Notes under the pieces: generated by a model
Seen by the model: only the letters and a program-made list of their open reading frames with translations
Told to the model about the DNA's origin: nothing
Database searches by the model: none
Position numbers and translations under genes: made by a program
Part shown: positions 2,374 through 39,896 of the stretch, one piece after another
How positions within the stretch are numbered: the stretch's first letter is position 1
How the letters are laid out: every line of letters starts with the position of its first letter
Source: Candidatus Nanopelagicaceae bacterium
GTDB lineage: Bacteria; Actinomycetota; Actinomycetes; Nanopelagicales; Nanopelagicaceae
Reading direction: 5' to 3'
NCBI GenBank assembly: GCA_018883345.1
Contig: VEQG01000007.1
Coordinates: 866-64,865, forward strand
DNA length: 64,000 nucleotides

Positions 2374-2395
2374 AGACTGCTAACAGCTTTTCAAA

Positions 2396-4452: not shown

Positions 4453-4453
4453 A

Positions 4454-5491: not shown

Positions 5492-5506
5492 TACATTTCC
5501 TTTCGA

Positions 5507-7215: not shown

Positions 7216-7230
7216 CTAAGAAATTATTAC

Positions 7231-9572: not shown

Positions 9573-9694
9573 GTCTAAACCTCTCGCCTTCCCTCGTTGG
9601 AATGGAGTGAAAGTACACCTGGTTCGTATCGCGCGAAAGGCTTTTTGATGAATTTTCGCTGGTTTTGAGTTAAATTTTCCCAACAAATGAAACG

Positions 9695-16053: not shown

Positions 16054-16092
16054 AAAACCGCCCGGCTAAATTCTATCTAGCCGGGCGGTTTT
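16054..16092 (-). terminator. Rho-independent (bidirectional-looking) terminator after opuAC
   Basis: AAAA-CCGCCCGGCTA-(9 nt loop)-TAGCCGGGCGG-TTTT. It is followed by a U-rich tract on the minus strand and lies 13 nt downstream of the opuAC stop. Confidence 0.7.
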
Positions 16093-16104: not shown

Positions 16105-17055
16105 TTACTTACCGGTCCAAGCCTTAACTTGGTCAGCGTGAGCATCAATCCACTTCTGTGCTGCCTCTTCAGGCTTCATTCCGCCTTCGATATCTGCAGC
16201 TACAGAGTTCTGATCATCATTTGTCCACTTAAAGTTCTGGACAAGCGTTGCAAATGGTGAACCAGAGTCCATCAACTTCTTCGAAGCAAGCTTCACAAGA
16301 ACTGTTTCTGGATAATCGGTTAGGCCGCTTGCTTTCGCAGCATCTGCCCAATCGTTAGCTGGGAAGTTAACGCGTGACTTCAATAGGCCAGGCATCTTCA
16401 CGAAGAAGGTCTGTGGCTCATAGAAGTATGCAATTGCAGGAGTCTTATTTGCCTCTGCCTTTGTAAGAACTTCAATCAGCGCAGCTTCTGAACCAGTTGA
16501 GATTGCTTTGAAGTTCAACTTATTAGCTGAAATCATCTTCTCACCGATTGTGGTGTAGCCAGGAGGGCCTTCATACCAAGCACCCTTGCCGCCAGAGTCT
16601 GCAGTCTTAAATAGATCTGCATACTTATTTAAGTTCTTTGAATCTGTGATGTCTGGGTATTTTTCAACCATCCAAGGTGCAACGTACATGCCGATACGAC
16701 CAATGTTGCCGTTTGGACCAACTTCAACGATCGCACCGCGATCTACCCATTCTTGCCAACGGCCGCCGCCCCAGTCTTCGATTACTACGTCAACTGTGCC
16801 AGCTTCCATCGCATCGTAAGTCACGCCAGCTTCTTCAAGTGTGGTCTGGTTGATTGTGCAACCTAGTTCCTTCTTAGCAATTTCTGCAACAACTTGTGCT
16901 GATGCTGTGTAACCATTCCAAGCATGCATTGCAATACCCCAGGTACCGCAATCTGCTGAAGCCTCTTCGGACTTTGAGCTACAAGCTGTTAGCACAAGGG
17001 AGAATGCCAAGACTGAAGATGCAAGCGCAATTTTGCGACCATGCTTTAATCTCAT
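16105..17055 (-). CDS. opuAC: Glycine betaine ABC transporter substrate-binding lipoprotein
   Basis: 316 aa. Lipobox LVLTAC. OpuAC/ProX-type SBP with Trp-rich ligand-box residues (WGGGRWQEW, WMVEKY). Confidence 0.8.
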   Translation of the reverse strand: MRLKHGRKIALASSVLAFSLVLTACSSKSEEASADCGTWGIAMHAWNGYTASAQVVAEIAKKELGCTINQTTLEEAGVTYDAMEAGTVDVVIEDWGGGRWQEWVDRGAIVEVGPNGNIGRIGMYVAPWMVEKYPDITDSKNLNKYADLFKTADSGGKGAWYEGPPGYTTIGEKMISANKLNFKAISTGSEAALIEVLTKAEANKTPAIAYFYEPQTFFVKMPGLLKSRVNFPANDWADAAKASGLTDYPETVLVKLASKKLMDSGSPFATLVQNFKWTNDDQNSVAADIEGGMKPEEAAQKWIDAHADQVKAWTGK

Positions 17056-17135: not shown

Positions 17136-19073
17136 TTACGCTCTTTTTGCGGCAGCTTGAGCAATTCGATCAATAGTTACACCAAGCAAAAGAATGACTA
17201 ACCCAGCAACTAAACCTTTACCTTGAAGTTCTGGCTTTGAACCGCCAAGAATTACTAGGTATCCAAGACCACCTGAACCAACGAATCCACCAATGACAAT
17301 TACTGCCAGCACGAAAATCATTCCTTGATTGGTGGCAAGTAGTAGCGCCTTCTTAGAAGCAGGTAATTGCACTTTAGTAATAATTTGTCGGACATTAGAA
17401 CCGGCTGCAGTGGCCGCTTCAACAATGGTCGCAGGAACTGCCCTTATTCCCTCTCCAACAATTTTTACCACTACTGGAATTGAATAGATGATGCCCGTAG
17501 CAATCGCAGTAAATCTAGTTGGGCCAAATAGGCCAAGCATCGGAACTAGATATACGAAAGCAGGAAGTGTTTGTCCTGCATCTAAGAATGGACGTAAGAA
17601 GGCATCGGCTTTATTACTTCTACCAACCCAGATTCCTAGACCGATTCCAATAATCATTGTTAATAGAGTTGCCACAATTGTTTGGGTTAAAGTAATCATC
17701 GCATCAAACCAAAGGCCAGATCCCACAATTAACATCAAAAGTGAAAATGTAAGTATTGCTACGCGATAACCACCCATTACCAATGCCACAATCACAAACA
17801 TGGTGACCGTCACATACCAAGGTGCTCTTGCAAGAACATCTTCAATTGGATTTAGGACCCAATTTGAAATTAAATCTTTGAAACCCACAGTTAAAAAATA
17901 TAAGTCTGTGGTTAAGAAAGTATTAACTTTGTTAGTTACTGTTTCAACTTGCAAGGCAATACTAAATTTCTCAGGAAATACTGCTAGAAATTCCACAAAA
18001 CTTGATAACAAGGTCGCTACCGCTGCAAATACTCCAGCGCCAATCACCTTATTTCGGCGCGCCTTTAATTGAGCTGGTGTAGGTGGAATAAATGATTGTT
18101 GCTTCTTTGCGGCCGCACTTGTGGCTCGATCCAGCATGATGGCTACAAAAACCACTGCAAAACCTGCCACAAAACCACGACCAACATTTCGGATGATTAG
18201 CGCTTCGACCACTGGTTTACCAAGTCCAGGTGCGGCAATTAAAGCGGCGATAACCACAAATGAAAGTGCGGCCATAACTGTTTGATTAATACCTAGCACA
18301 ATCATTTGCTTTGCCATTGGCAGTTGTACTTTGCGCAAAGTCTGTTTATTGGTAGCGCCCATCGATATAGAAGCTTCTACGGGAGAAAAGTTTAAAGTCC
18401 TAATTGCATGTGAAGTAATTCTGATAGTTATCGGAATGCTGTAAACCATGGTTGCAATGGTTGCCGCAGCTACGCCAATCATAAAGAAGAGGGCTAACGG
18501 AGCGAGATAAACTAAAGTAGGAAGGATTTGGGCTAAATCCAACATTGGTGTAAGAATTTTTAATACTCGATCGGATAGGCCAGCCCAAATTCCAAGTGGA
18601 ATTCCGATTGCAAGTGAAAGTAATACTGCCGCGATGGTCATTGCAATTGTGTCCATCGTAAATTGCCACATGCCAAGTGCTCCGCAAGCAAGTAAGAGTG
18701 CAACCGATAGCAGTGCAATTCTTAAGCGACTTGTTGCATAAACAATGAAACCAACTATTGCGATAACTCCAAACCAACCAATGTATGGTGCTGGAGCGCC
18801 ATTAGTTGGAACCGAGATATAGGTACGAATAAATTCTACGAAGCCGGTTATTGCTAACCGGATTGGGTTAAATAGGTATATAAAAAGTGGACTCTTAGTG
18901 CGATTACCTCGGATTGATTCGGCGGCATCACCAAACACTGTAGTAACGGGAGTGTTTGAAGATACTGCCAATTCCATGGTGTCGCGGCCCTGTAACAGTT
19001 TGGCCAGGGCCCACCAGATGGCAACTAAGCCAAGCAGGAAATAACCCTTATGTTGCTTTACTTTTTCCAGCAT
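17136..19073 (-). CDS. opuAB: Glycine betaine ABC transporter permease, tandem-fused double ProW/OpuAB domain
   Basis: 645 aa. The two halves are clearly paralogous (LAIGIPLGIWAGLSDR...LPTLVYLAPLALFF vs IIGIGLGIWVGRSNK...LPAFVYLVPMLGLF). Each half ends in ...DR(A/I)..AAAK. Confidence 0.85.
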   Translation of the reverse strand: MLEKVKQHKGYFLLGLVAIWWALAKLLQGRDTMELAVSSNTPVTTVFGDAAESIRGNRTKSPLFIYLFNPIRLAITGFVEFIRTYISVPTNGAPAPYIGWFGVIAIVGFIVYATSRLRIALLSVALLLACGALGMWQFTMDTIAMTIAAVLLSLAIGIPLGIWAGLSDRVLKILTPMLDLAQILPTLVYLAPLALFFMIGVAAATIATMVYSIPITIRITSHAIRTLNFSPVEASISMGATNKQTLRKVQLPMAKQMIVLGINQTVMAALSFVVIAALIAAPGLGKPVVEALIIRNVGRGFVAGFAVVFVAIMLDRATSAAAKKQQSFIPPTPAQLKARRNKVIGAGVFAAVATLLSSFVEFLAVFPEKFSIALQVETVTNKVNTFLTTDLYFLTVGFKDLISNWVLNPIEDVLARAPWYVTVTMFVIVALVMGGYRVAILTFSLLMLIVGSGLWFDAMITLTQTIVATLLTMIIGIGLGIWVGRSNKADAFLRPFLDAGQTLPAFVYLVPMLGLFGPTRFTAIATGIIYSIPVVVKIVGEGIRAVPATIVEAATAAGSNVRQIITKVQLPASKKALLLATNQGMIFVLAVIVIGGFVGSGGLGYLVILGGSKPELQGKGLVAGLVILLLGVTIDRIAQAAAKRA

Positions 19074-20098
19074 TAATTGACTCCGGCAATTAGCCCAAGC
19101 ACATCTTCTGCTGAGACCACACCAATAGATTTTCCATTATCAACTACGTGCACTGGGTGATGAGCTTCAAGGATCTTTGAAGTCGCTTCGCGAATGATGG
19201 TATTTGAAGCTAATTCAATACTAGCCGCAGTTTCGTCTGAACGAAGCGGCCTTGCTAAGTACTTAAGAGTCAAAACATGTGACTTTGCGATATCTCGCAC
19301 GAAATTAGCTACGTAATCATCTTTTGGATTGGCAACTAACTCTTCTGGTGTGCCCACTTGTATCAGTGCACCATCGCGCATGATTGCAATTCGGTCACCA
19401 ACTTTTGCTGCTTCTTGCAAGTCATGAGTGATAAAGACCATGGTTTTACCTAAATCATGATGCAAACGAATAACTTCATTTTGCATGTCGCGACGAATCA
19501 ATGGATCTAAAGCTGAGAATGGTTCGTCTAAAAACATAATTTGTGGATCTACTGCAAGCGCGCGTGCCAAACCAACGCGCTGCTGCATGCCGCCAGATAG
19601 TTGTTCTGGGTAAGCTTCGGAATAACCTTGTAGGCCAACTAATTCAATTACTTCATGGGCTCGCTTGTGACGTTCTGCTTTTGATACTCCATTAATTTCT
19701 AAAGAGTATGCGATGTTATCGACAACTTTTCGATGTGGAAGTAATCCGAAATGTTGAAAGACCATTGAAAATTTAGTGCGTCTAAGTTCACGTAGTCGAT
19801 TGGCATCTACTTTGAGAATATCTTCCCTGTCATAAACCAATTCGCCTTGGGTTGGTTCGATTAATCGAGTCATGCAGCGAACCAGGGTTGACTTACCTGA
19901 ACCAGATAAGCCCATTACAACGAAAACTTCGCCCTTTGCTACTTCAAAAGAGACATCTCTTACGGCGATGGTGTTGCCGGTCTTGTTTCGAAGTTCGGTG
20001 CGAGTTAAATCAGCATCCGGAGTACCAATTAACTTCTCAGCGTTTGGCCCGAAAACTTTCCAAACATTCTTAACTGAGATCATCGACGTTGATGACAT
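19073..20098 (-). CDS. opuAA: Glycine betaine/proline ABC transporter ATP-binding protein with C-terminal CBS-like domain
   Basis: 341 aa. Walker [10 protein letters not shown], signature LSGGMQQR, Walker [12 protein letters not shown]. 1-nt overlap with the permease gene. Confidence 0.85.
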
Positions 20099-20121: not shown

Positions 20122-21597
20122 TTAGCGTTCGGCAAACCAACCTGATTTAGCAGGCATATTGTTGGTCCAAATGTGTTTACTTTCAAGGAATTCCGAGAGT
20201 CCGTGCTCTCCTAATTCTCTGCCGATGCCAGAGGCTTTAAATCCGCCCCACTCTGCCTGCGGTTTGTATGGACCGTAATCATTTACCCAAACGGTTCCGT
20301 GGCGAAGTGCCCGTGAAACACGTTTGGCTTTAGCATCGTCTTTGGTCCAGACCGCACCGCTTAAGCCATAAATCGTGTCATTTGCAATCGCAATGGCTTC
20401 TGCTTCAGTCTCAAAAGTTTCTACCGTAATTACTGGGCCAAATGATTCATCTTGGACACAACTCATTTTGGTATTGCAACCATCAAGAACGGTTGGCGGG
20501 AAGAAGTTGCCCTTTGCAAAATCTCCTTCGGTTAATTTCTTGCCGCCCACTAAGAGTTTTGCACCTTCAGCAACTGCCTTATCGACATACTCCTGCACTT
20601 TATTTAAATGGTTTGCACTAATTAATGGACCCGTTTCCGCTTCTGTTGAATCTGGTCCGCCAACTTTAATTTCTTTAGCGCGAAGTGCAATTTCAGAGAC
20701 TACTTTTTGGTGAATTGATTTTTCCACTACTAATCGAGTGCCGGCTGAACATACTTGACCTGAATGTAGGAAACCTGCGGTGACCGCGTTATCGATTGCC
20801 GCATCTAAGTCAGCATCAGCAAAGATGATATTTGGATTCTTGCCACCTAGCTCTAGGGCAACTTTCTTTATGGTCTTTGATGCCAAAGACATGATTCGCT
20901 GGCCAATGCCAAGACTTCCCGTAAATGAGACTAAATCAATTCGTGGATCTGCAGTAAGTAAATCTCCGATTGAGGAACCTTTGCCAAGAATTAAATTTGC
21001 AACACCAGCTGGAACACCGGCTTCATCGATTAATTTAAATAGATGTATTGCAGTCGACGGCGTAAGTTCAGCTGGTTTTACGATGAAAGTACATCCGGCA
21101 ACCAACGCGGGCGCAACTTTCCAAGAGACTTGAAGCAATGGGTAATTCCAAGGTCCAATTAAAGTGCAAACTCCAACTGGCTCTTGAACCACACGAGAAT
21201 CAATGTGTTCAATGCCTACATTTACAACGCGGTCATGTTCCTTCTTGCCAATCTCAGCAAAATGGCGAAAACAGGCAATCACATCTGCAATGTCATATTC
21301 AGCTTCAATGAGGCGCTTTCCAGTGTCATCGCTTTCAAGTTTTGCCAAAATCTTTAGATCGCGTTCCATCAAATCGGCAATCTTGCTTACTAAGTCAGAA
21401 CGTTTTTCAAAACTCCAGCTAGTAAATTCACCTGAATCAAAGGCGGTACGAGCTGCTTTGATTGCAAGTTCAACATCAGGTGCAGTTGCTTCAGCAACAG
21501 TTGCAACTAAATGTCCATCAGCGGGACTTATGACATCGCAGGTCTGACCTTCTACCGGCGAGACCCACTTCCCGTTTACGTAAAGAGTATTACTCAC
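20122..21597 (-). CDS. betB: Betaine aldehyde dehydrogenase
   Basis: 491 aa ALDH (FTGS, LELGGKNP, GQVCSAGTR). The GTG start lies 8 nt inside the end of the MttB-family gene. Operon context is with opuA and betA. Confidence 0.8.
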   Translation of the reverse strand: MSNTLYVNGKWVSPVEGQTCDVISPADGHLVATVAEATAPDVELAIKAARTAFDSGEFTSWSFEKRSDLVSKIADLMERDLKILAKLESDDTGKRLIEAEYDIADVIACFRHFAEIGKKEHDRVVNVGIEHIDSRVVQEPVGVCTLIGPWNYPLLQVSWKVAPALVAGCTFIVKPAELTPSTAIHLFKLIDEAGVPAGVANLILGKGSSIGDLLTADPRIDLVSFTGSLGIGQRIMSLASKTIKKVALELGGKNPNIIFADADLDAAIDNAVTAGFLHSGQVCSAGTRLVVEKSIHQKVVSEIALRAKEIKVGGPDSTEAETGPLISANHLNKVQEYVDKAVAEGAKLLVGGKKLTEGDFAKGNFFPPTVLDGCNTKMSCVQDESFGPVITVETFETEAEAIAIANDTIYGLSGAVWTKDDAKAKRVSRALRHGTVWVNDYGPYKPQAEWGGFKASGIGRELGEHGLSEFLESKHIWTNNMPAKSGWFAER

Positions 21598-23029
21598 CTA
21601 ACTCTGATTTTCTCTTTGCTACATAATCTTGTAGCCCAGTAAGAATTGAGGCATCCATCTCTGGTTGTACATACTCTTCGAGTTTCTTCTTCCAAATTTC
21701 TTCTGCACGAGCACGGGTGTCCTTCGCGCCAAGACGTGTCCAGCGATCGTAGTTATCGCTATTTGTTAAAAATGGACGATAGAAACAATCACGGAAACGC
21801 TCCATGGTGTGTGCAGCTCCCAAGAAGTGTCCACCATGGCCAACTTCTTGATGAGCATCAAATGCAAGTGATGCTTCGTTAAATTCAAGCGGAGTAAATT
21901 CGGCCATTAATGCTTGAAGAATTTCAATATCAACAATGAACTTGTCATATGACGAAACAAGTCCACCTTCTAGCCAACCGGCTGAGTGCATAACCCAGTT
22001 GGTTCCGGCTAAGAATGTAGGCAACATGGTCATCAAAGTTTGATATCCAGCTTGCGCATCAACAGTTTGAGATGAATTTAGCGTTCCACCGCCACGGAAA
22101 GGCAAGTTAAAACTGCGGGCAATTTGGCCGGTGCAAAGTAGGCCAATACCTGATTCTGGAGTACCAAATTGTGGTGAACCTGATTGCATATCTACGTTTG
22201 ATAAGAATGAACCAAATACCACCGGTGTTCCTGGGCGAATCAATTGTGCAAGTGCAATACCGGTGAGCGCTTCCGCAATTTGCTGTGCCAAAGTTGCTGG
22301 AATTGTTACTGGTGACATCGCACCCATTAATAGGAATGGAGTAAATACCACTGGCTGACCTGCGAGCGCATATTCACGCATCGAATCAAGCATGCGATCA
22401 TCCCAACGAAGTGGTGAGTTGCAGTTGATAAGAGAGATAAGTGCAGGAGTTTCTTCAATAGCCTTGCGGCCACCGTGAATAATTTCGGTCATCGCAATTA
22501 CATCGCGTGCATTCTCAGCCGACACCACGTTGCCCATGAAGAATTTATCGGTCAAAGTAGCTTGCGCCATCACCATATCTAAATGGCGAGAATCAAGTGA
22601 AAGGTCATTTGGCTCTACTACAACGCCACCAACAGAATCGAGTGCATCAAAACTCTGCGCAAGCTTGCAGAAGTTTTGGAAATCATTGAACGTACCATCG
22701 CGACGAGTTGAACCTTCCAATACGAAAGGCGGGCCATAAACTCCACCAAAGACCATGTGGTTGCCACCAATGTGCACATTTCGTTTTGGATTGCGAGCGC
22801 GTAGATCAAATTCAGAAGGCGCCTTAGCTATTTGCTTCAAAATCCATTCTGGATCGAACTTAACTAATTCACCGGTAACTTCTTGGCCAGCTTCTTTCAA
22901 CATATCGACTGCCCACGGACTTGCGAACTCAAGACCGATTTCGGAAACAATTCGCTTCCAACCAGCATTTAATGTTGCCATCGATTCTTCAGAGAGAATC
23001 TCGTAACGAGGCATTTTATTTACAAACAT
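21590..23029 (-). CDS. MttB-superfamily methyltransferase without pyrrolysine (candidate glycine betaine:corrinoid methyltransferase, MtgB-like)
   Basis: About 479 aa uninterrupted ORF with no in-frame stop. RYEILSEES...IVSEIGLEF N-terminus and overall MttB-family resemblance. The start is refined to the ATG at 23029, preceded by GAAAGG. The ORF-track start at 23101 runs into the promoter palindrome. Confidence 0.85.
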   Translation of the reverse strand: MFVNKMPRYEILSEESMATLNAGWKRIVSEIGLEFASPWAVDMLKEAGQEVTGELVKFDPEWILKQIAKAPSEFDLRARNPKRNVHIGGNHMVFGGVYGPPFVLEGSTRRDGTFNDFQNFCKLAQSFDALDSVGGVVVEPNDLSLDSRHLDMVMAQATLTDKFFMGNVVSAENARDVIAMTEIIHGGRKAIEETPALISLINCNSPLRWDDRMLDSMREYALAGQPVVFTPFLLMGAMSPVTIPATLAQQIAEALTGIALAQLIRPGTPVVFGSFLSNVDMQSGSPQFGTPESGIGLLCTGQIARSFNLPFRGGGTLNSSQTVDAQAGYQTLMTMLPTFLAGTNWVMHSAGWLEGGLVSSYDKFIVDIEILQALMAEFTPLEFNEASLAFDAHQEVGHGGHFLGAAHTMERFRDCFYRPFLTNSDNYDRWTRLGAKDTRARAEEIWKKKLEEYVQPEMDASILTGLQDYVAKRKSELGE

Positions 23030-23080
23030 TTTTCGCCTTTCGCTTGCTTGACCTGAGCCAACCTTAGAGAATACGCTCAG

Positions 23081-23104
23081 ATAATGGAACAGGGGTTCCA
23101 TTAT
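23081..23104. promoter_or_regulatory. Perfect 10-bp inverted repeat, candidate IclR operator in the divergent promoter
   Basis: ATAATGGAAC-AGGG-GTTCCATTAT lies in the 122-nt spacer between the mttB homologue (start 23029) and iclR (start 23152). A further GGAAC half-site is at 23107-23111. Confidence 0.45.
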
Positions 23105-23151
23105 GCGGAACAGTAAATTTTAACCATAGTGCAGGCATAGGCGGTGAATTT

Positions 23152-23916
23152 ATGGCTCTAACCGGAACACAAGCAGTTGATCGTGCAACTTCGCTGCTGA
23201 TTGCAATTTTAAATTCACCCGAACCACCACTGCTCTCCGAACTTTCACGCCAACTTGGTTTACCTAAATCAACTACCTCCAGAATTCTTGGTGCGCTAGA
23301 ACGTCAGGGTCTTGTTCGTCGAGATCGCAACAGCGCATACCTAGGTGGCGAAGTATTACTTCGATATGCATCAACTCAGAATCAGGATGCAGCATTGATT
23401 GCGAGAATGCGCCCGGTTCTAGAAAGTTTGGCTGCGAAAACTTCGGAATCAGTTAATTTAGCAGTGCCAGGTTCTGATGATCTTAAATTAATTGATCAAG
23501 TTGATGGCAAGCATTTGCTAGGTGCCACTAATTGGATTGGGCGTAATGTTCCTTATCATGCTTCCGCACTTGGAAAAGTTTTGCTCGCATTTGGTGCAGC
23601 TTCACTGCCAACCGGAACACTTCAAACAAAAACTACTCGCACCATCACAACTCGTTCAATGCTAAATGCAGAGTTGGAAAAAGTGCGAAAAACAGGTTTT
23701 GCAATTATCGACAATGAACTTGAAGATGGTTTAGTTGCAGTAGCTGCGCCAGTTTTCTCCATTGATGGAAATGTCATTGCGGCAATCTCAATTTCAGGAC
23801 CGGATGCTCGAATCAGTCGCGAGCAATTAAATAAGTTTGGTGAACTAATCATCAAAGAGTTAAAGATAGAAAGCACACAGATAGCGAAAGCTAAAGGAAA
23901 GGTAGGCGCAGCATGA
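23152..23916 (+). CDS. IclR-family transcriptional regulator
   Basis: 254 aa. wHTH (AVDRATSLLIAIL...LSELSRQLGLPKSTTSRILGAL) plus IclR effector domain. First gene of the corrinoid operon. Confidence 0.85.
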   Translation: MALTGTQAVDRATSLLIAILNSPEPPLLSELSRQLGLPKSTTSRILGALERQGLVRRDRNSAYLGGEVLLRYASTQNQDAALIARMRPVLESLAAKTSESVNLAVPGSDDLKLIDQVDGKHLLGATNWIGRNVPYHASALGKVLLAFGAASLPTGTLQTKTTRTITTRSMLNAELEKVRKTGFAIIDNELEDGLVAVAAPVFSIDGNVIAAISISGPDARISREQLNKFGELIIKELKIESTQIAKAKGKVGAA

Positions 23917-24572
23917 GCCATGAAGAGATCCTCAAAGGCTTATTCGATGAGACTCTTGTAGGAAACGCTCCTGCAGTACTCGAACTAACCAATAAAGGAA
24001 TTGCAGATGGCATGGACCCATCATCAATCCTCTTTGACGCTTTGATTCCAGCTCTTGAAGAGGTTGGCGCCCGTTTCGAGCGTGGCGATTTCTTCGTACC
24101 AGAGATGTTGATTTCAGGTAAGGCAATGTCAGGTGCGCTTAACGTTTTGCGTCCACTTCTAGCGCAAACTGGCGCTGAATCTGTCGGTACATTCTTAATG
24201 GGTACCGTAAAGGGCGATGTTCACGACATCGGCAAGAACTTGGTAAACATCATGCTTGAAGGCGCTGGCTTTACCGTAATTGATATTGGAGTTCAGGTTG
24301 CACCTGAGAAATTTGTTGCGGCAATCAACGAACATAAGCCAGATATTGTTGGTATGTCAGCCTTCTTAACTACCACCATGCCAATGTTCAAAGTTAACAT
24401 CCATGAAATTAATAAAGCTGGTCTTCGTGATCAAGTAATCATCATGGTTGGCGGCGCTCCAGTTACTCAAGAATATGCAGATGTAGTCGGTGCTGATGGT
24501 TATGCCGCAGATGCTTCAAGTGCCGTAAAGGTTGCAAAAGATCTTCTAGCAAAGAGACGCGCAGCGGTATGA
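23913..24572 (+). CDS. Corrinoid (B12-binding) methyl-carrier protein, MtgC/MtbC-like
   Basis: 219 aa. N-terminal helical cap domain plus Rossmann B12 domain with DVHDIGKN (DxHxxG), SAFLTTT (SxL) and MVGGAP (GG). ATGA overlap with iclR. Confidence 0.85.
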   Translation: MSHEEILKGLFDETLVGNAPAVLELTNKGIADGMDPSSILFDALIPALEEVGARFERGDFFVPEMLISGKAMSGALNVLRPLLAQTGAESVGTFLMGTVKGDVHDIGKNLVNIMLEGAGFTVIDIGVQVAPEKFVAAINEHKPDIVGMSAFLTTTMPMFKVNIHEINKAGLRDQVIIMVGGAPVTQEYADVVGADGYAADASSAVKVAKDLLAKRRAAV

Positions 24573-24934
24573 AATTCCTGCCATTAATCGAAGACGCAAT
24601 CAAGAAGCCGGTTTTTGGTTGCCAGATGTGTGGTCAATGTGTGCTCCACTCAACTGGAATGGTTTGTCCAATGACATGCCCAAAAACTCTTCGCAATGGA
24701 CCTTGTGGCGGAGTTCGAGAAAATGGCAATTGCGAAGTTAAACCAGAGATGCAATGCATTTGGGTTAAAGCATATGATCGCAAAGAAACTCTACATCTAC
24801 CTCAGGTTTGGAAAGATCACTACAACGATTTGCGCCCACCTGTAGATATGCGTCTAAAAGGAACTTCTTCTTGGTTAAATTTAATTACCAAGCGAGATAA
24901 GCAAACACCAGCTGGCTGGGCGGCTAATGAGTAA
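24569..24934 (+). CDS. MetV-like protein (methylene-THF reductase C-terminal Zn-ribbon domain)
   Basis: 121 aa, Cys-rich (CQMCGQCVL...CPMTCPK..NGPCGG...C), as in the MTHFR_C/MetV proteins that partner MetF in acetogens. ATGA overlap upstream and 8-nt overlap with metF. Confidence 0.7.
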   Translation: MKFLPLIEDAIKKPVFGCQMCGQCVLHSTGMVCPMTCPKTLRNGPCGGVRENGNCEVKPEMQCIWVKAYDRKETLHLPQVWKDHYNDLRPPVDMRLKGTSSWLNLITKRDKQTPAGWAANE

Positions 24935-25826
24935 TCTGCAACATTTATTTGAAAATACTAATGATTTAGTTTTTACTGCTGAATTTCCATCTATTGATGG
25001 TGGCGGCATGGAGAAAGTGGCTAAAGAGGCAGATCGTTTACGTCCATGGTTTGATGCAGTTAATTCAACAGATAATGCTGCGGCTCATGCGCATGCTTCG
25101 AATTTATCTGTCGCGATTGCGATCAAACAACATGGTCTCGAACCAGTTATGCAGATCGCGCAACGCGATAAGAATCGTCTGGCAGTTCAGGCTGACATTA
25201 TGGGCGCTGCGCTACATGGCATTGAAAATATTGCGCTTATGACTGGCGATGATGTGACGGCTGGCGATGAACCAGAAACGCGCCGAGTCTTTGACTTAGA
25301 TGGCCCAATCGCAATTAAAGTCGCTGAAATTATCCGTAACGGAACTTACCTTTCCGGACGCAAAATCAATCCCGCTCCTTCGCTATTTATTAGCGCGGTA
25401 GAAAATCCCGGAACTCATCCTTTTGAATATCGAATTGATCGAGCCATCAAGAAGCAGAAAGCTGGCGCTCGTTGGTTGCAATTACAACTTTGCTTCCACA
25501 TGGATCGCTTAGAAAATTTCTGCAAAGGCGTAGCGGCTCACGGAACAAATTTGCCAATCTTGCCTAACGTAATTTTGATAAAGGGCGCTAAAGGGATGCA
25601 GTTCATGAACGAAAATGTTCGTGGCATCAATATTCCGCAAGAAATGATTGACCGCGTTGCTAAAGCAGCTGACCCAGCTGAAGAGGCTTACCAATTAACG
25701 CTCGAACTAGCTAAGCATGCATTGGCACAACCAGGTGTGCGTGGCTTACATGTAACAGATTTCCGTCACGACGACTCACTCGATCGATTAATGACGGATC
25801 TTGGCCGAACCAGGAAGAATGGATAA
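24927..25826 (+). CDS. metF: Methylenetetrahydrofolate reductase (MetF, MetV-associated type)
   Basis: 299 aa TIM-barrel MTHFR-like sequence (VNSTDNAAA, QRDKNRLAVQADIMGAALHGIENIALMTGDD). Confidence 0.8.
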   Translation: MSNLQHLFENTNDLVFTAEFPSIDGGGMEKVAKEADRLRPWFDAVNSTDNAAAHAHASNLSVAIAIKQHGLEPVMQIAQRDKNRLAVQADIMGAALHGIENIALMTGDDVTAGDEPETRRVFDLDGPIAIKVAEIIRNGTYLSGRKINPAPSLFISAVENPGTHPFEYRIDRAIKKQKAGARWLQLQLCFHMDRLENFCKGVAAHGTNLPILPNVILIKGAKGMQFMNENVRGINIPQEMIDRVAKAADPAEEAYQLTLELAKHALAQPGVRGLHVTDFRHDDSLDRLMTDLGRTRKNG

Positions 25827-25829
25827 GAA

Positions 25830-26696
25830 ATGCAAACAGTAGTTAGCTCACCAACCAAGACCGTAACTATCGGTGATGACAATCCTTTTTGTATCATCGG
25901 AGAACGCATCAACCCAACTGGTCGCCGAATTTTCCAAGAGCAAGTACGTGCTGGAGATTTATCAGCAATCATTAAAGATGTTAAGGCGCAGGTAGAAGGT
26001 GGCGCAGATATGTTGGACGTCAACATGGGCGTACCACTAACCGATGAAGCAGATTTGATGCGCCAAGCAATCAAGATGGTGCAGGAACTTACCGATCTTC
26101 CAATTTGTATCGACTCATCAGTACTCGAAGCGTTAGAAGCAGGACTTCAGACATATCAAGGTCGTGCTTTAGTTAATTCAACAACTGGTGAAGATGATCG
26201 ATTAGACCATATCTTGCCGCTGATTAAGAAGTATGACGCTGCAGTGATCGCACTTCCAAACGATGAAACTGAAATCCCAATGACTGTTGCAGATCGGCTA
26301 AAAATTACCGAAAAAATCCTTCGGGCATGCGACAAACATGGCATTTCACATGACCGAATTGTGCTCGATCCGCTAGCTATGCCGATTGGCGCAGAACCAC
26401 AAGCTGGCAATCTTTTCTTTGAAACAGTTCATGAAATTAAGCAACGTTGGGATTTGAACATGACTTGTGGAGCATCAAATGTTTCATTTGGTATGCCAAA
26501 CCGACATGCAATTAATGCGGCATTCTTGCCTGCTGCAATGACCGTAGGTTTAACCTCAGCTGTTATGGATGCACGTACTCCTGAAATCGTCTCTGCAGTA
26601 CGCGCTACTGATATTCTGCTTGGAAACGATCAATATGGCGGAGCATGGATTACTCGCTTCCGCGCCATGGAAGCAGCTGCTAAAGCACAGGCATGA
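25830..26696 (+). CDS. Methyl-THF:corrinoid methyltransferase (pterin-binding domain; AcsE/MtgA/MetH-domain-like)
   Basis: 288 aa. IIGERINPTG, GADMLDVNMG, ICIDSS, LVNSTTG and CGASNVSFG(M)PNR motifs of the pterin-binding (DHPS-like) fold. Confidence 0.8.
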   Translation: MQTVVSSPTKTVTIGDDNPFCIIGERINPTGRRIFQEQVRAGDLSAIIKDVKAQVEGGADMLDVNMGVPLTDEADLMRQAIKMVQELTDLPICIDSSVLEALEAGLQTYQGRALVNSTTGEDDRLDHILPLIKKYDAAVIALPNDETEIPMTVADRLKITEKILRACDKHGISHDRIVLDPLAMPIGAEPQAGNLFFETVHEIKQRWDLNMTCGASNVSFGMPNRHAINAAFLPAAMTVGLTSAVMDARTPEIVSAVRATDILLGNDQYGGAWITRFRAMEAAAKAQA

Positions 26697-26706
26697 TTTT
26701 CTAGTT

Positions 26707-28551
26707 ATGGCAAAAGAATTCAATCCGGATCTTGCCGGACATGATGGCGCTAGCCGTGTTAAATTACATTTTCGCGCGCTAGAAAAAGATGGCGAAGTAT
26801 CTGCTGAAAAGATAGTTACAGTCCCATCTGGCGTTAGTGCATTTGATGCAGCATCATGGAATGGCATTGCGATTGATTCAACTTGTGGCGGTTACGGAAC
26901 TTGTAAGAAATGTAAAATTCAAATCACGGATGGCAGCGTAGAGCCTTCAAAATTAGATTTCCGCGCTTTCACCCCAGATGAGATTCAAAGTGGTTGGCGC
27001 CTTGCTTGCATGGTCCGAACTACAAAAGATATCTCTATTGATGTGCCACCGCTTACTACTAGACCAAAAGCGGCCACCGTTGGTGTTGGCAGACAAATTA
27101 TTTTGCGACCTGGAATCCAAAAGCGATATGTCGAACTTTCAGAACCTACCCTCTCAGATCAACGCACTGACATTGTTAGACTTCTTGAAGCTATTGAAGA
27201 TATTGAGCCAACATATTCTTTAGATATTCTGCGAGAGCTACCAACAGTCCTGCGCAAGAATAATTTTAAAGTCACCGCGGTATTCGCAGACCAAGAGTTA
27301 ATCGCAATAGAAGGTGGAGATACCAGCGAAATTCGTTACGGAATTGCCTTTGATTTGGGCACCACGACCGTAGTTGCCACTTTGATTGACTTAAATACTG
27401 GAGCGCCTGCGGCCGTTAAATCGATACTAAATAAGCAACAACCTTTTGGTGCAGATGTCATCACTCGAATAAGTGCAACCATGATGGATCCAGAAGGTTT
27501 GGGCAAACTTCGAACTTTGGCGCAAGAGACTTTGGCGCAATTAACAAGAGAAGTATGTGAAGAAGCAGACGTTAATCCGCTTAATGTCTACGAAGTTGCG
27601 ATGGCTGGCAATGCAACTATGACTCAAATAATTCTAGGTATAGATCCAGAACCACTAGGTGTTGCGCCATTTATTATGGCTACTGCTGATTATCAGCCAG
27701 TTGATGCAACCGAACTTGGACTTTCAATTCACCCAAGAGGCAAAGCAATCATCTTGCCTTCACTTGGCGCATACGTTGGTGGAGATATCGTTGCCGGAGC
27801 ACTTGCCTCAGGTATGGATCGTGACAAACGTTTACGTTTATTTATCGATGTCGGAACTAATTGCGAAATTATTTTAGGTAATGGCGAAAAAATTCTGGCA
27901 ACTGCTGCCCCAGCAGGACCTGCCTTTGAAGCTGCCTCAATTAAATGTGGTGTTCGTGCTGCGGCTGGCGCTATTGAAACCGTAAAAGTTGTAGATGGCA
28001 AACTTGAAATTGGCACTATTGATGACGCACCAGCAATCGGTATCTGTGGTTCTGGTCTAGTTGACGCCGTAGCTTGTTTGGTGCAATTAGGTATTCTCGA
28101 CTCATCTGGCAAGTTCAATGCAGTGGATGATCCAAATTTAGTCGAACGAGATGGCGAAAAGATTTACATGCTCACAGAAGATGTTTTCTTAAGCCAAAGA
28201 GATGTCCGCGAATTGCAATTTGCCAAGGCTGCAATTGCTACTGGATGGGCGTTATTGGCTGAAGAGTTTGGCATTGAAGATAAAGATATTCAGCAAGTGC
28301 TACTGGCAGGTTCTTTTGGTTCCTACCTATCCCCTGCATCTGCAGTAAAGATTGGACTTGTGCCAAAAATCAGCGTTTTGCGAATAGTTTCAGCAGGTAA
28401 CGTAGCTGGTGAAGGTGCAAAGATGGCGCTACTTTCAACTCAAGAGCGCCATGGTGCTATGACCCTGCTGGATGAAATCAAATACGTAGAACTATCTGAT
28501 CGCGAAGATTTCAATGATAAGTTCGTAGAAAGATTGGCTTTCCCAGTTTGA
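26707..28551 (+). CDS. Corrinoid reductive activase, RACo/RamA-type ([2Fe-2S] ferredoxin domain + ASKHA ATPase/DUF4445)
   Basis: About 614 aa. N-terminal plant-type ferredoxin cysteines (CGGYGTCKKCKI...LAC). C-terminal ASKHA-like region (GIAFDLGTTTV, FIDVGTNCEI, ICGSGLVD). The start is refined to the ATG at 26707 (MAKEFNP). The ORF-track start at 26569 overlaps the upstream gene. Confidence 0.8.
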   Translation: MAKEFNPDLAGHDGASRVKLHFRALEKDGEVSAEKIVTVPSGVSAFDAASWNGIAIDSTCGGYGTCKKCKIQITDGSVEPSKLDFRAFTPDEIQSGWRLACMVRTTKDISIDVPPLTTRPKAATVGVGRQIILRPGIQKRYVELSEPTLSDQRTDIVRLLEAIEDIEPTYSLDILRELPTVLRKNNFKVTAVFADQELIAIEGGDTSEIRYGIAFDLGTTTVVATLIDLNTGAPAAVKSILNKQQPFGADVITRISATMMDPEGLGKLRTLAQETLAQLTREVCEEADVNPLNVYEVAMAGNATMTQIILGIDPEPLGVAPFIMATADYQPVDATELGLSIHPRGKAIILPSLGAYVGGDIVAGALASGMDRDKRLRLFIDVGTNCEIILGNGEKILATAAPAGPAFEAASIKCGVRAAAGAIETVKVVDGKLEIGTIDDAPAIGICGSGLVDAVACLVQLGILDSSGKFNAVDDPNLVERDGEKIYMLTEDVFLSQRDVRELQFAKAAIATGWALLAEEFGIEDKDIQQVLLAGSFGSYLSPASAVKIGLVPKISVLRIVSAGNVAGEGAKMALLSTQERHGAMTLLDEIKYVELSDREDFNDKFVERLAFPV

Positions 28552-29129
28552 CCACTGCAGTGATTGCGTGTGGTGCGATAGCTAGCCATATTTCTAATAT
28601 CGCATCACGAGAGAATTTTGATATCACTATTTACCCATTGCCGCCACTACTTCACAACCAGCCTGAAAAAATTGCTGGCGAAGTAGAGTCAAAAATTGCA
28701 GAAATTAAAGATAGGTACCAGAAAATTGCAGTTGCTTACTCCGATTGTGGTACCTATGGAGCGCTAGATAAAGTTATTGAAAAGTACGGAATACAAAGAC
28801 TTGGCGGGGATCATTGCTATGACGTTTTTGCTGGAAAAGAACGAGTCTTCGAATTAACAACTAGCGGTACCTATTTCTTTACAGACTATTTAGTTAAATC
28901 ATTTCATAGAAGCGTAGTTGTGGAATTAGGTTTGGATAAACACCCGGAACTGATTGATGATTACTTTAAGAATTACCAAAAAGTTGTCTGGCTTGCGCAG
29001 AATCCAACTGAAGAATTAAAAATTGCTGCACAAGCCGCCGCCGATTTAATGAAATTACCTCTAGAAATTGAAATAGTAGGTGAATCAGGATTGCTTGACG
29101 AGCTCAAGCGCCTTCTTAACCACATCTGA
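28548..29129 (+). CDS. DUF1638-family protein (function unknown)
   Basis: 193 aa. IACGAI...PPLLHNQPEKI...YSDCGTYG...GDHCYD pattern resembles DUF1638. The TTG start overlaps the activase stop (TTGA). An alternative GTG start is at 28560. Confidence 0.65.
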   Translation: MTTAVIACGAIASHISNIASRENFDITIYPLPPLLHNQPEKIAGEVESKIAEIKDRYQKIAVAYSDCGTYGALDKVIEKYGIQRLGGDHCYDVFAGKERVFELTTSGTYFFTDYLVKSFHRSVVVELGLDKHPELIDDYFKNYQKVVWLAQNPTEELKIAAQAAADLMKLPLEIEIVGESGLLDELKRLLNHI

Positions 29130-32081
29130 TAGCAGCTTCGGATCAACATCTTCAGCTAAACGCTGACGCATGATTGGTGTCCAAAACTGTGTCATGTGAT
29201 GAGCTACTTCGATTTCAGGTGCTCCAGCAGATGGAATATTCAACGCAATTTGATTTGCCATGCGAATAATTGAATCCAACTGAACATCACCATGTTCTCC
29301 ATGATGTGCCAACTTAGCAACCGCTTCACTCGGTTCCACCTGTACCGCGGTTACCTTATATTCTGGGCAATTTGTTGCCCAATCTGAATAATCAGTTGTG
29401 ATTACGTTTGCACCAGATTCTGGGAAGTGGAATGTAGTCCAAACCACGCCTGGTGCCACTTCATCAGTTACTCGCGCGCGCATCAAAGTTTCTCCAACAC
29501 GACTTGAGAGTTTGACCCATGATCCATCCTTAATGCCACGCATCTCCGCATCTGATTCGTGAATATCAAGAGTATCTTGCGGATGCCAAACGTTATTTTC
29601 AGTGCGTCGAGTTTGTGCACCCACGTTGTACTGACTTAAAACACGACCAGTTGTAAGCAATAATGGGAATTTACGATTGGTCTTCTCTTCAGTTGCTACA
29701 TATGGAGTCAACATAAAGTTTCCGGAACCGCGCACAAATCTTTCTATATGCATAATTGGTGTGCCGTCAGGCGCTTTTTCGTTAACAGGCCATTGCATGC
29801 TGCCTTCGGCATCAAGGCGAGCATGTGAAACGCCAGCAAAGGTTGGCGTTGTGGCTGCAATCTCTTCCATGATTTGTGCGGCATTTTCGTAATGCATGTT
29901 GTAACCCATTGCTTTAGCAAGGTCGCAGGTAACTTCCCATTCATCTTTACCAGTTTGAGATGGCATTGCTGGACGAACTCGATTGATGCGTCGCTCTGCA
30001 TTTGTGAAAGTGCCATCTTTTTCAAGGAAAGAAGTTCCAGGTAAGAATACGTGTGCGTATTTTGCAGTTTCATTTAGGAATAGATCCTGAACAATCACCA
30101 TATCCATGGCTGCAAGGCCCGCTGTTACGTGTTGAGTATTTGGATCAGATTGCGCAATGTCTTCGCCTTGAATATAAATTCCTTTATATTCACCGGCAAT
30201 TGCCGCATCCAACATATTTGGAATACGCATTCCTGGTTTCTCTTTTAACTTTACGCCCCAAAGATTTTCATAAATTGCACGAGTATCTGGATTAGAGATG
30301 TGGCGATAACCCGGTAATTCATGCGGGAAAGAGCCCATATCGCAGGAACCTTGGACATTGTTCTGACCACGTAGTGGGTTTACGCCAACTCCCTTGCGGC
30401 CAATATTTCCAGTTGCCATCGCTAGGTTTGCAATGCCCATAACCATGGTAGATCCCTGGCTATGTTCGGTAACACCTAAGCCGTAATAGATCGCACCGTT
30501 TGGCACTGAAGCATAAAGTCGAGCAGCGGCACGAATTTCAGATGCAGGAACAGAAGAAATTTTCTCCATCGCCTCTGGAGAATTCTCTGGTCTCTTGATG
30601 AACTCAGCCCAGACTTTAAATGCTTCAGTATCGCAACGTTCCTCAATGAATTTCTTATCTTCAAGTCCTTCGGTCATAACAACGTGTGCAATCGCATTAA
30701 TAATTGCGACGTTGGTCCCCGGCAGAAGTTGAAGATGATGTTCTGCTTTGATGTGTGGGGACTTAACTAAATCAATCTGTCGAGGATCCACCACAATAAG
30801 TTTTGCACCTTTTCGAAGCGCTTGCTTTACGCGTGAACCAAATACTGGGTGTGCATCAGTTGGATTTGCACCAATAACCATGATTACATCTGAATGTTCA
30901 ACTGATTCGAAATCTTGAGTGCCCGCAGATGTACCGAAAGTCTTATTTAATCCATAACCGGTTGGTGAATGGCACACACGCGCACAGGTATCAACATTGT
31001 TTGTACCGAAAGCTGCACGTACCATTTTCTGTACTACATAAACTTCTTCGTTGGTGCAGCGAGATGAAGTGATTCCACCAATAGAGTTCCAACCATAAGT
31101 TTCTTGAACTTTTTTCAAACCATTTGCAGCATAAGCAATAGCTTCATCCCAAGTTACTTTGCGCCATTCATCCGTGATTTTTTCGCGAATCATTGGAGAA
31201 AGCTGACGATCATTATGAGAGGCGTAACCCCAAGCAAAGCGACCTTTCACGCATGAATGACCTTCATTTGCTCCACCATTTTTCAGAGGAATCATGCGGA
31301 CAACTTCATTGCCCTTCATCTCTGCTCTAAATGAACAACCAACTCCGCAATATGCGCAGGTAGTGTCTACAGATCTTGTTGGTGCGCCAATAGTCAGCAG
31401 ATTCTTCTCTTTTAGCGCGCCAGTTGGGCAGGCTTGAACACAAGCGCCGCAGGAAACGCACTCAGATTCAACGAAATTCTTATTTCCGGCGCTTACACGA
31501 GCATCGAATGCACGGCCGGTGATAGTGAGTGCGAACGTACCTTGGACTTCATCGCAAGCGCGAACACATCGATTACAGACAATGCACTCTGTTGAATCAA
31601 AATTGAAGTATGGATTTGATTCATCCTTTGGTAAATCTAAATGGGTCTTTCTATTGTCGTTAGCTTCGTAACGAACTTCCTTAAGTCCAACTTTCTTAGC
31701 AACGCCATGCACTTGGCAGGCATCTCCTACTTCGCAATTCTCTGGATGATCAGAGAGGTAAAGTTCCATAACGCCTTGGCGCATGCGATCTAATTTCTCT
31801 GATTTTGTTGAAACCTTCATACCATCAGCAACTGGAGTGGTACATGAAGAAGGCGTTCCTTTGCGGCCATCAATTTCAACTACGCAAAGTCGGCAAGAAC
31901 CAAAAGCTTTTAAGCGATCGGTTGCGCATAACTTAGGGATATCGATGCCGCACTCTGCTGCTGCGCGCATGATTGAGGTATCGGCAGGGACTTCTACAGT
32001 TTGGCCATCAATTTCGACCGTAACTTTTTCGGTGCGCTTAGATTTAGGAGTACCGAAATCTGGTTCCATTATTAAGCTCAT
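29085..32081 (-). CDS. fdsA: NAD-dependent formate dehydrogenase alpha subunit (Mo-bisMGD, Cys type) with FdsD-like C-terminal extension
   Basis: About 998 aa. NuoG-like N-terminus ([2Fe-2S] CATDRLKAFGSCRLC and 4Fe-4S clusters). MopB domain with CAYCGVGC and active-site ARVCHSPTG. The start is refined to the ATG at 32081, preceded by GGAGGAG and forming ATGA with the fdsB stop. The last ~81 aa (IIRMANQIA...FWTPIMRQRL) resemble FdsD. Confidence 0.85.
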   Translation of the reverse strand: MSLIMEPDFGTPKSKRTEKVTVEIDGQTVEVPADTSIMRAAAECGIDIPKLCATDRLKAFGSCRLCVVEIDGRKGTPSSCTTPVADGMKVSTKSEKLDRMRQGVMELYLSDHPENCEVGDACQVHGVAKKVGLKEVRYEANDNRKTHLDLPKDESNPYFNFDSTECIVCNRCVRACDEVQGTFALTITGRAFDARVSAGNKNFVESECVSCGACVQACPTGALKEKNLLTIGAPTRSVDTTCAYCGVGCSFRAEMKGNEVVRMIPLKNGGANEGHSCVKGRFAWGYASHNDRQLSPMIREKITDEWRKVTWDEAIAYAANGLKKVQETYGWNSIGGITSSRCTNEEVYVVQKMVRAAFGTNNVDTCARVCHSPTGYGLNKTFGTSAGTQDFESVEHSDVIMVIGANPTDAHPVFGSRVKQALRKGAKLIVVDPRQIDLVKSPHIKAEHHLQLLPGTNVAIINAIAHVVMTEGLEDKKFIEERCDTEAFKVWAEFIKRPENSPEAMEKISSVPASEIRAAARLYASVPNGAIYYGLGVTEHSQGSTMVMGIANLAMATGNIGRKGVGVNPLRGQNNVQGSCDMGSFPHELPGYRHISNPDTRAIYENLWGVKLKEKPGMRIPNMLDAAIAGEYKGIYIQGEDIAQSDPNTQHVTAGLAAMDMVIVQDLFLNETAKYAHVFLPGTSFLEKDGTFTNAERRINRVRPAMPSQTGKDEWEVTCDLAKAMGYNMHYENAAQIMEEIAATTPTFAGVSHARLDAEGSMQWPVNEKAPDGTPIMHIERFVRGSGNFMLTPYVATEEKTNRKFPLLLTTGRVLSQYNVGAQTRRTENNVWHPQDTLDIHESDAEMRGIKDGSWVKLSSRVGETLMRARVTDEVAPGVVWTTFHFPESGANVITTDYSDWATNCPEYKVTAVQVEPSEAVAKLAHHGEHGDVQLDSIIRMANQIALNIPSAGAPEIEVAHHMTQFWTPIMRQRLAEDVDPKLLSDVVKKALELVKQS

Positions 32082-37350: not shown

Positions 37351-37354
37351 GTTT

Positions 37355-39874: not shown

Positions 39875-39896
39875 GGTTTTTTCTCCTTGATTTGCC

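Follow-up and report, generated by a model that had tools for sequence, protein, structure and literature searches.

Known relatives of the system described here demethylate glycine betaine with a methyltransferase of the MttB superfamily (PF06253) that contains no pyrrolysine. In the aerobe Ruegeria pomeroyi, genetics and proteomics established that MtgB, MtgC, MtgD, a RamA-like protein, a DUF1638 protein and MetF2 demethylate betaine (Mausz et al. PNAS 2025, PMC12478193); betaine, choline and carnitine induce two PF06253 proteins, the RamA-like protein, the DUF1638 protein and the MetF paralogue, mtgC and mtgD knockouts do not grow on betaine, and MtgC and MtgD are needed for methionine synthesis too (PMC12478193). 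Gene sets of this kind are widespread in aerobic Alpha-, Gamma- and Deltaproteobacteria, often clustered, with the cluster of Sinorhizobium meliloti named MtgBCDE, and about 5% of ocean mtgC reads belong to Actinomycetota (PMC12478193). A 64-kb stretch of DNA from a Candidatus Nanopelagicaceae bacterium (the window), a member of the acI freshwater Actinobacteria, contains a locus that probably encodes a cobalamin-dependent glycine betaine demethylase of the MtgBCD type, in the form that occurs in acI, within an island for choline/betaine catabolism and one-carbon (C1) oxidation.

Three other described systems share parts of this machinery. MtgABC of Desulfitobacterium hafniense (also Methanolobus vulcani) has in common with the acI locus a TIM-barrel protein of the non-pyrrolysine MttB family, a separate corrinoid protein and a methyl-corrinoid:tetrahydrofolate (THF) methyltransferase. 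In contrast to acI, D. hafniense is a strict anaerobe in which the methyl group feeds energy metabolism differently, its MtgB has Phe356 where the acI protein has Gly356 and Trp352, and its MtgA is reported to lack sequence identity to known structures (PMC7154762), whereas the acI methyltransferase is clearly of the Pterin_bind/MeTr type. In Phaeobacter inhibens grown aerobically, RamA-like and DUF1638 proteins serve a split B12-dependent methionine synthase (Price et al. 2018, PMC5764234) with separate B12-, pterin- and homocysteine-binding proteins under air, as predicted for acI, but that system is defined for methionine synthesis only, while in acI the cassette is tied to betaine catabolism, with the candidate homocysteine module far from it. 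In Eubacterium limosum, a single corrinoid protein, THF methyltransferase and activase (MtqC, MtqA and RamQ) serve MtpB, MtcB, MtyB and MthB (PMC8604678); this organism is an anaerobic acetogen with 42 paralogues and other substrates, whereas the acI window has one paralogue.

The nearest proteins and loci all come from Nanopelagicaceae or 'Candidatus Planktophila' (acI), river metagenome-assembled genomes being nearest, and the G+C content of the window is 41-46%. That the host is aerobic, as the initial annotation supposed, agrees with the description of acI strains as aerobic chemoheterotrophs with cytochrome c oxidase (PMC5301498). They are without cobalamin biosynthesis and have a putative energy-coupling factor (ECF) cobalamin transporter behind a riboswitch (PMC5301498), and cobinamide salvage is possible in some Planktophila (PMC12817590). 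The B12 supply of this organism is taken from the literature because an Rfam search found no cobalamin riboswitch in the window; only RNase P was found, a bacterial class A RNase P RNA (63808-64000, minus strand, 147 bits) represented by its 3' part and truncated at the window edge. Formate dehydrogenase, molybdenum cofactor (Moco) synthesis and a betaine transporter were reported in one of four acI strains, with no link drawn between them (Kang et al., PMC5301498).

Genes were called from a listing of open reading frames (ORFs) and from profile searches (Pfam, NCBIfam). The two arms of the locus and the elements between them are:

21590-23029, minus strand: mtgB, non-pyrrolysine MttB-superfamily protein of 479 amino acids, proposed glycine betaine:corrinoid methyltransferase (PF06253, 624 bits)
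20122-21597, minus strand: betB, betaine-aldehyde dehydrogenase (PF00171, 557 bits; top NCBIfam match TIGR01804 BADH, 561 bits, below its cutoff of 669)
19073-20098, minus strand: opuAA, ABC ATPase (PF00005)
17136-19073, minus strand: opuAB, fused double permease of 645 amino acids (two BPD_transp_1 stretches)
16105-17055, minus strand: opuAC, substrate-binding protein of betaine/choline type (PF04069, 112 bits)
16054-16092, minus strand: intrinsic terminator or attenuator in the opuAC/betA gap (hairpin and U tract)
14389-16032, minus strand: betA, GMC choline dehydrogenase (TIGR01810, 827 bits, above its cutoff of 732; GMC_oxred_N/C)
13572-14399, minus strand: fdhD, formate dehydrogenase maturation (PF02634, 195 bits); overlaps the end of betA and is kept 3' of it in related loci
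23067-23076, minus strand: AGCGTATTCT element with a -10-like TATTCT, putative mtgB promoter (conserved in 77 loci)
23085-23111, no strand assigned: putative IclR operator of three half-sites (conserved in 77 loci)
23152-23916, plus strand: iclR-family regulator, first gene of the plus arm (HTH_IclR and IclR_C)
23913-24572, plus strand: mtgC, corrinoid (cobalamin) carrier protein (B12-binding_2 and B12-binding)
24569-24934, plus strand: metV-like small Cys-rich subunit of methylene-THF reductase (PF12225, DUF5981/MetV-like, 95 bits; 8 Cys)
24927-25826, plus strand: metF, methylene-THF reductase, equivalent of MetF2, proposed to run in the oxidative direction (PF02219, 97 bits)
25830-26696, plus strand: mtgD, pterin-binding methyl-corrinoid:THF methyltransferase (PF00809; NF005719, PRK07535, 325 bits, above its cutoff of 259)
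26707-28551, plus strand: ramA, RACo-type ATP-dependent reductive activase with [2Fe-2S] and ASKHA domains (Fer2, RACo_linker/middle/C_ter)
28548-29129, plus strand: DUF1638 protein (PF07796, 86 bits), a family tied by genetics in other bacteria to B12 reactivation (PMC5764234)

Two divergent operons share a 122-nt spacer (23030-23151), as the initial annotation stated and as the ORF listing and the start codons in an alignment of 77 loci confirm. On the minus arm, mtgB, betB, opuAA, opuAB and opuAC precede the terminator, beyond which lie betA and fdhD; the earlier description of the opu genes, including the fused opuAB, agrees with their domains, and that of a strong terminator with its hairpin. 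The MttB-family ORF of about 479 codons indeed lacks an internal stop, and its stop codon overlaps the GTG start of betB by 8 nt. On the plus arm the order is iclR-mtgC-metV-metF-mtgD-ramA-DUF1638, a gene content that profile searches and motifs bear out. The claim that all junctions of this arm are overlaps had to be amended at two of them: metF and mtgD, the latter with metV-metF directly upstream, are separated by a 3-nt gap, and the in-frame ATG at 26707, most likely the activase start, lies 10 nt past the mtgD stop, the ATGA at 26693 being out of frame. An activase start at 26569 was rejected in favor of the in-frame ATG at 26707. The start of mtgB is placed at 23029, giving 479 amino acids and the 122-nt spacer, because in the 77-locus alignment the conserved coding sequence begins exactly there, preceded by a ribosome-binding site; the codon is ATG in the window and GTG in most related loci. 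A version of 503 amino acids from the upstream ATG at 23101 was rejected.

A homologue at 80-99% identity was found in 80 species-representative genomes. When the window proteins were compared with these 80 loci by tblastn, and the arrangement was judged where the contig is long enough, one invariant order emerged: fdsB-fdsA converge on the arm iclR-mtgC-metV-metF-mtgD-ramA-DUF1638, which diverges from mttB-betB-opuAA-opuAB-opuAC-betA-fdhD. The best-conserved products are MtgB (79-98%) and MtgC (81-96%), and the least conserved is IclR (50-96%), which occupies the same position in every related locus that reaches it.

The same seven components occur in the aerobic MtgBCD(E) type, for which the S. 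meliloti cluster served as a stand-in for the tested R. pomeroyi proteins (SPO2160, SPO1863, SPO2108/2134). By tblastn against plasmid and chromid records, the Paracoccus methylovorus p1 cluster has mttB divergent from genes for a B12-binding protein, a DUF1638 protein, a methylene-THF reductase C-terminal-domain protein, a methylene-THF reductase, a methyl-THF:cobalamin methyltransferase and an ASKHA protein, and a 3.7-Mb S. meliloti record labelled pSymB has the same gene set and a nearby 'betaine-homocysteine methyltransferase'. This record (CP090106.1, L084), labelled 'plasmid pSymB', is presumed from its size to be the chromosome; plasmid-based statistics would be misled by its inclusion. 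The acI components are identical over their full length to those of the S. meliloti/Paracoccus cassette at 43-45% (MtgB), 45-47% (MtgC), 51% (MetV), 32-34% (MetF), 46% (MtgD), 30-32% (activase) and 38-42% (DUF1638). In these two organisms, as in acI, mttB diverges from mtgC; acI also shares with this type an aerobic host and a context of THF-linked C1 oxidation, and it has a candidate MtgE. In contrast to the S. meliloti and Paracoccus loci, which have LysR/GlxA-type regulators nearby, the acI locus has iclR first and DUF1638 last on the plus arm, and its mtgB overlaps betB with opuA following. The acI host differs from those of the described type in being a freshwater, genome-streamlined actinobacterium and a B12 auxotroph, and its system is described from gene content, that of R. 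pomeroyi by genetics and proteomics.

MtgC carries the DxHxxG (GDVHDIGKN), SxL and GG motifs, the first of the type that binds cobalamin in the His-on form, and includes the DVHDIGKN noticed at the outset. The methylene-THF reductase is of the two-gene MetV/MetF type, which the Paracoccus and S. meliloti cassettes also have; its MetV-like small subunit, with 8 Cys, probably carries an Fe-S center.

The closest PDB match of MtgB is 4YYC (416 bits), which contains an unknown ligand and is 100% identical to the cluster-linked MtgB of S. meliloti, and MtgB of D. hafniense (2QNE and the betaine-bound 9YCE) follows with 392 bits and 40.5% identity. Mutagenesis together with a ligand-bound structure defined the betaine site of the D. 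hafniense enzyme (Picking et al. JBC 2026, PMC13080624): cation-pi contacts come from Y97 and F356, the carboxylate is held by R312 and H348, and the aromatic pair was reported not to be conserved in the group MtcB, MtpB, MthB and MtyB, which between them act on carnitine, proline betaine, butyrobetaine and phosphocholine (PMC13080624). When residues were mapped onto this enzyme, with the 2QNE numbering offset verified, three of the four contacts were found to be kept in the acI protein: R312 and H348 align exactly, and Y98 corresponds to Y97. The aromatic pair is incomplete, with Tyr present, Gly at position 356 and Trp at position 352, one helical turn before it. Since F356 is a defining residue, acI MtgB falls outside the D. 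hafniense type in its strict sense. Its signature YRLHWGG (positions 97/312/317/348/352/355/356) is the same as in the cluster-linked MtgB proteins of S. meliloti and Paracoccus; orphan MttB paralogues on S. meliloti pSymA and a Leisingera plasmid, which adjoin FAD oxidoreductases and were used as a contrast, have Ala97, and the nearest relatives outside acI, two metagenomic clusters at 56-58% identity, have Ser or Gln at this position. A Candidatus Dormibacteraeota cluster comes next at 49% (clusters P0121, P0122 and P0125), so that the group with W352 that includes acI MtgB extends to other phyla, probably with other substrates there. Across 109 homologues, aromatic residues never occur at positions 352 and 356 together (352 only, 48; 356 only, 40; neither, 21), and because of this mutual exclusivity Trp352 is a plausible replacement for Phe356 in the aromatic box for betaine.

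The pathway in which MtgB is proposed to act draws on further genes of the island:

29085-33966, minus strand: fdsA (with C-terminal FdsD), fdsB and fdsG, NAD-type formate dehydrogenase (TIGR01591, 920 bits, and PF11390; Complex1_51K, 2Fe-2S_thioredx)
33977-35641, minus strand: fhs, formate-THF ligase (PF01268, 881 bits)
35642-37446, minus strand: etfA/etfB, electron-transfer flavoprotein (ETF_alpha and ETF domains)
37355-40018, minus strand: dimethylglycine/sarcosine dehydrogenase-type enzyme (DAO-FAO_M-GCV_T; no NCBIfam equivalog cutoff reached), with its true start probably downstream of 40018
48272-49204, minus strand: candidate mtgE, stand-alone homocysteine-binding methyltransferase module (PF02574, 242 bits)

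According to their families, the OpuA transporter would import choline or betaine, and BetA and BetB would oxidize choline to glycine betaine. By homology, MtgB is predicted to move one N-methyl group of betaine to Co(I) on MtgC, releasing dimethylglycine, and MtgD, whose family assignment is above cutoff, would pass the methyl group to THF. MetVF may then oxidize methyl-THF to methylene-THF, with a presumed electron acceptor and in a direction suggested by the context and by the induction of MetF2 in R. pomeroyi; a housekeeping FolD, formate-THF ligase and NAD-linked formate dehydrogenase would continue to CO2, giving ATP and NADH. The dimethylglycine dehydrogenase linked to the electron-transfer flavoprotein (ETF) is predicted to strip further methyl groups, and the [2Fe-2S]-ASKHA activase and DUF1638 protein would re-reduce Co(II) arising by oxidation. 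Cobalamin would have to come by import.

Glycine betaine is most likely the substrate of MtgB, because BetB is predicted to make betaine, the dimethylglycine dehydrogenase to use dimethylglycine, and MtgB is the sole candidate between them: no other betaine-demethylating enzyme is present in the window, which has one MttB homologue, and a scan that took in nearly all window ORFs of at least 150 amino acids, though no other part of the genome, detected no Rieske GbcAB/BmoAB-type gene, an absence that had been remarked on before. The overlap of mtgB with betB, which serves betaine synthesis, and the location of the dimethylglycine dehydrogenase/ETF pair 14 kb from mtgB argue for the proposed demethylase, as does the loss of betaine catabolism in the R. 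pomeroyi MtgC and MtgD knockouts. That a corrinoid protein mediates the demethylation of betaine to dimethylglycine and that the methyl group is retained as methyl-THF, as first proposed in the initial annotation, is thus well supported as a prediction by the pathway gap, the three kept residues and homology of 30-51%. The accompanying caution that the substrate could not be read from the sequence can be narrowed, as context and active-site residues together favor glycine betaine.

Several observations weigh on the other side. The fourth contact residue, F356, is Gly in acI MtgB, and the case for Trp352 in its place consists of the mutual exclusivity described above. Its identity to the MtgB proteins that are backed by experiments or genetics reaches only 40-45%, and the acI protein lies apart from the S. 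meliloti/Paracoccus proteins in a neighbor-joining tree of the MttB family, a tree that is without bootstrap and indicative only, built from 97 library representatives with PDB and plasmid-derived sequences and leaving out R. pomeroyi SPO2108/SPO2134, MtpB, MtcB, MtyB and MthB. BetB (TIGR01804) and MtgC, the top NCBIfam match of which is the MtgC model NF047996 at 208 bits against a cutoff of 370, fall below equivalog cutoffs. FolD, the sarcosine step and the cobalamin transporter lie outside the window, and for the acI proteins the argument is one of sequence combined with precedent in other hosts.

The same corrinoid machinery could instead act on another quaternary amine, such as proline betaine, carnitine, gamma-butyrobetaine, phosphocholine or choline, with betaine kept as an osmolyte or demethylated elsewhere. 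MttB-family paralogues that are 53% identical differ in substrate, making similarity uninformative (PMC8604678), OpuAC-type binding proteins often take proline betaine and choline too (PMC13080624), and the loss of F356 fits such a shift. This alternative is nonetheless unlikely, given that mtgB, overlapping betB, forms one conserved block with betA, opuA and the dimethylglycine dehydrogenase in 80 of 80 genomes, that Y97, R312 and H348 are kept while the aromatic pair is not conserved in the enzymes for other substrates, that the signature matches that of the cluster-linked S. meliloti and Paracoccus proteins, and that the window, with its single MttB homologue, offers no other catabolic route for the betaine that BetAB would produce.

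A second alternative starts from the candidate mtgE, which resembles a stand-alone homocysteine domain of MetH: its nearest structure is the MetH homocysteine domain 1Q7M (175 bits, compared with 77 bits for human betaine-homocysteine methyltransferase, BHMT), it matches PRK07534 'BHMT' at 290 bits, below the cutoff of 338, and its identity to S. meliloti bmt, reinterpreted as MtgE by Mausz et al. (PMC12478193), is 44%. Therefore, the acI corrinoid core may double as a split methionine synthase with this candidate MtgE, which lies 19 kb from the cassette. If methionine synthesis were the primary function of the plus-arm cassette, betaine demethylation would be secondary or would feed methionine, and the window contains no full-length MetH or MetE to take this role. 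Such a primary function is very unlikely: the cassette is physically tied to bet/opu, formate dehydrogenase, fhs and dimethylglycine dehydrogenase genes, with which it would be co-regulated, and not to methionine genes, and if mtg travels with the formate dehydrogenase, Moco and betaine transporter genes found in one of four acI strains (PMC5301498), it is an accessory cassette and not a universal synthase. A methionine synthase role is also compatible with betaine demethylation, as both functions coexist in R. pomeroyi.

Candidate mtgE overlaps by 1 nt a gene for a protein of 237 amino acids (block 47559-49204, minus strand) that has no Pfam match at E <= 1e-5 and the top NCBIfam matches of which are phosphatidylcholine synthases (132 bits, below cutoff). 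A Pcs-like, choline-consuming candidate coupled to a methionine-synthase module in an actinobacterium, 25 kb from the choline island, is unusual.

The label 'trimethylamine--corrinoid protein Co-methyltransferase', given to mtgB by source annotations in keeping with its PF06253 domain, was rejected and has next to no probability of being right, as the gene has no in-frame UAG and encodes Leu at the pyrrolysine position, the TIGR02369 model of pyrrolysine-containing MttB scores 262 bits against a cutoff of 525, identity to that enzyme (7XCL) is 26% (134 bits), and non-pyrrolysine MtgB does not use trimethylamine (PMC13080624).

The spacer between the arms of the proposed betaine demethylase locus contains three half-sites, TGGAAC-N4-GTTCCA-N5-(C/T)GGAAC (23085-23111; GTTCCA-N5-TGGAAC-N4-GTTCCA in the other direction), that are kept in 77 spacers while their flanks diverge. 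Within the 64-kb window the exact palindrome occurs once, and a search for further copies gave only weak, chance-level matches. This element is presumably an operator and the adjacent IclR its binder. On the mtgB side of it, AGCGTATTCT (23067-23076) is conserved at >=90% across the 77 loci and may be the -10 element of the mtgB promoter, in which case the putative operator, 40 nt upstream of iclR, would span the -35 region. IclR probably represses both divergent promoters through the three half-sites until an effector (betaine, choline or dimethylglycine) binds. In several acI lineages (spacers L015, L011-L014 and L019-L026) the 5' leader of mtgB is 60-90 nt longer and holds a conserved block, TTAATATCGGCTCA followed by GAGYG, that is missing from the lineage of the window and may be an additional regulatory element. 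A scan for sigma-70 consensus promoters was set aside because its matches were outnumbered by those in shuffled sequence and because it picked up neither the spacer nor the strong terminator.

The hairpin at 16054-16092 (-38.6 kcal/mol, z = -8.8), with a stem of 21 bp, is followed by a U tract. About 55 related loci have a hairpin with a U tract at the same place between opuAC and betA, each time with a stem that differs in sequence, and the terminator or attenuator is therefore considered real; it would make betA-fdhD a separate unit or one reached by read-through.

The mtg locus lies at the center of an island of roughly 31 kb (about 13.5 to 45 kb) for the catabolism of choline and betaine and for C1 oxidation. 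Beyond the plus arm it comprises the formate dehydrogenase, fhs, ETF alpha and beta and dimethylglycine/sarcosine dehydrogenase-type genes, a GntR regulator, molybdenum cofactor synthesis genes and a molybdate-type ABC transporter. In the alpha subunit of the formate dehydrogenase (29085-32186, minus strand), FdsD (PF11390) occupies residues 973-1027, so that alpha and delta are fused, and the 3' end of fdsA overlaps the convergent DUF1638 gene by 45 nt.

Two blocks lie on the fdhD side of the island. In the first (382-8352, minus strand), genes for a glycerophosphodiester phosphodiesterase (GDPD, 382-1041) and a protein with an MpaB/Lcp-type oxygenase domain (1038-1958) are near an ABC importer (4454-8352; ATPase, two permeases and binding protein), and the interval holds genes for a cysteine-synthase-like PLP protein (2396-3280) and a member of the enolase superfamily (3343-4452); that this block supplies choline from glycerophosphocholine is speculative. 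The second (8472-13523), directly beside the island, contains a second IclR regulator (9695-10459, plus strand), a Zn-alcohol dehydrogenase, malate synthase (10456-12039) and a PuuC/BADH-like aldehyde dehydrogenase (12021-13523), and is possibly a glyoxylate or glycolate assimilation module.

Co(I) chemistry is ordinary in aerobes, being that of MetH. Because MetH is routine under air and betaine demethylation in aerobic R. pomeroyi is a published case (Mausz et al. 2025, PMC12478193), the surprise that the initial annotation expressed at finding this chemistry in an aerobe falls away. Its statement that the characterized enzymes all come from anaerobes holds for characterization in vitro, of which the literature searched contains no example from an aerobe. 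In acI a known system has a new host; that such systems exist and that they function in aerobes had been published already. New here are the acI host, the fusion with bet/opu, the conserved three-half-site operator, the candidate MtgE 19 kb away and the proposed Trp352-for-Phe356 swap; the literature searched contains no prior report of the system in acI, the bet/opu fusion, the IclR operator or the Trp352/Phe356 exclusivity.

A wider role can be suggested tentatively, at rather less than even odds: the MtgC/MtgD/RamA/DUF1638 core may be both the only betaine demethylase of acI (with MtgB) and its only methionine synthase (with the MtgE-like protein), so that scavenged cobalamin is spent on catabolism. 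If so, choline/betaine turnover in fresh water and the methionine supply of acI would both be limited by B12, the aromatic box of the W352 group would consist of Tyr97 and Trp352, as against Tyr97 and Phe356 in the D. hafniense type, and MetVF, an Fe-S enzyme of the acetogen type, would operate in the oxidative direction under air. The exclusivity of Trp352 and Phe356 suggests a second way of building an aromatic box for betaine.

The acI Nanopelagicaceae dominate lake bacterioplankton and are the most abundant bacterioplankton of fresh water. The island would explain the co-occurrence of formate dehydrogenase, Moco synthesis and a betaine transporter in one acI strain as a cobalamin-dependent gain of energy and C1 units from the methyl groups of choline and betaine. 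Compared with the oxygenase route, this pathway would spend no NADH or O2 and release no free formaldehyde. The marine MtgBCD finding of 2025 would be extended to fresh water and to Actinomycetota, and B12 cross-feeding in lakes would be linked to the turnover of osmolytes and phospholipid head groups.

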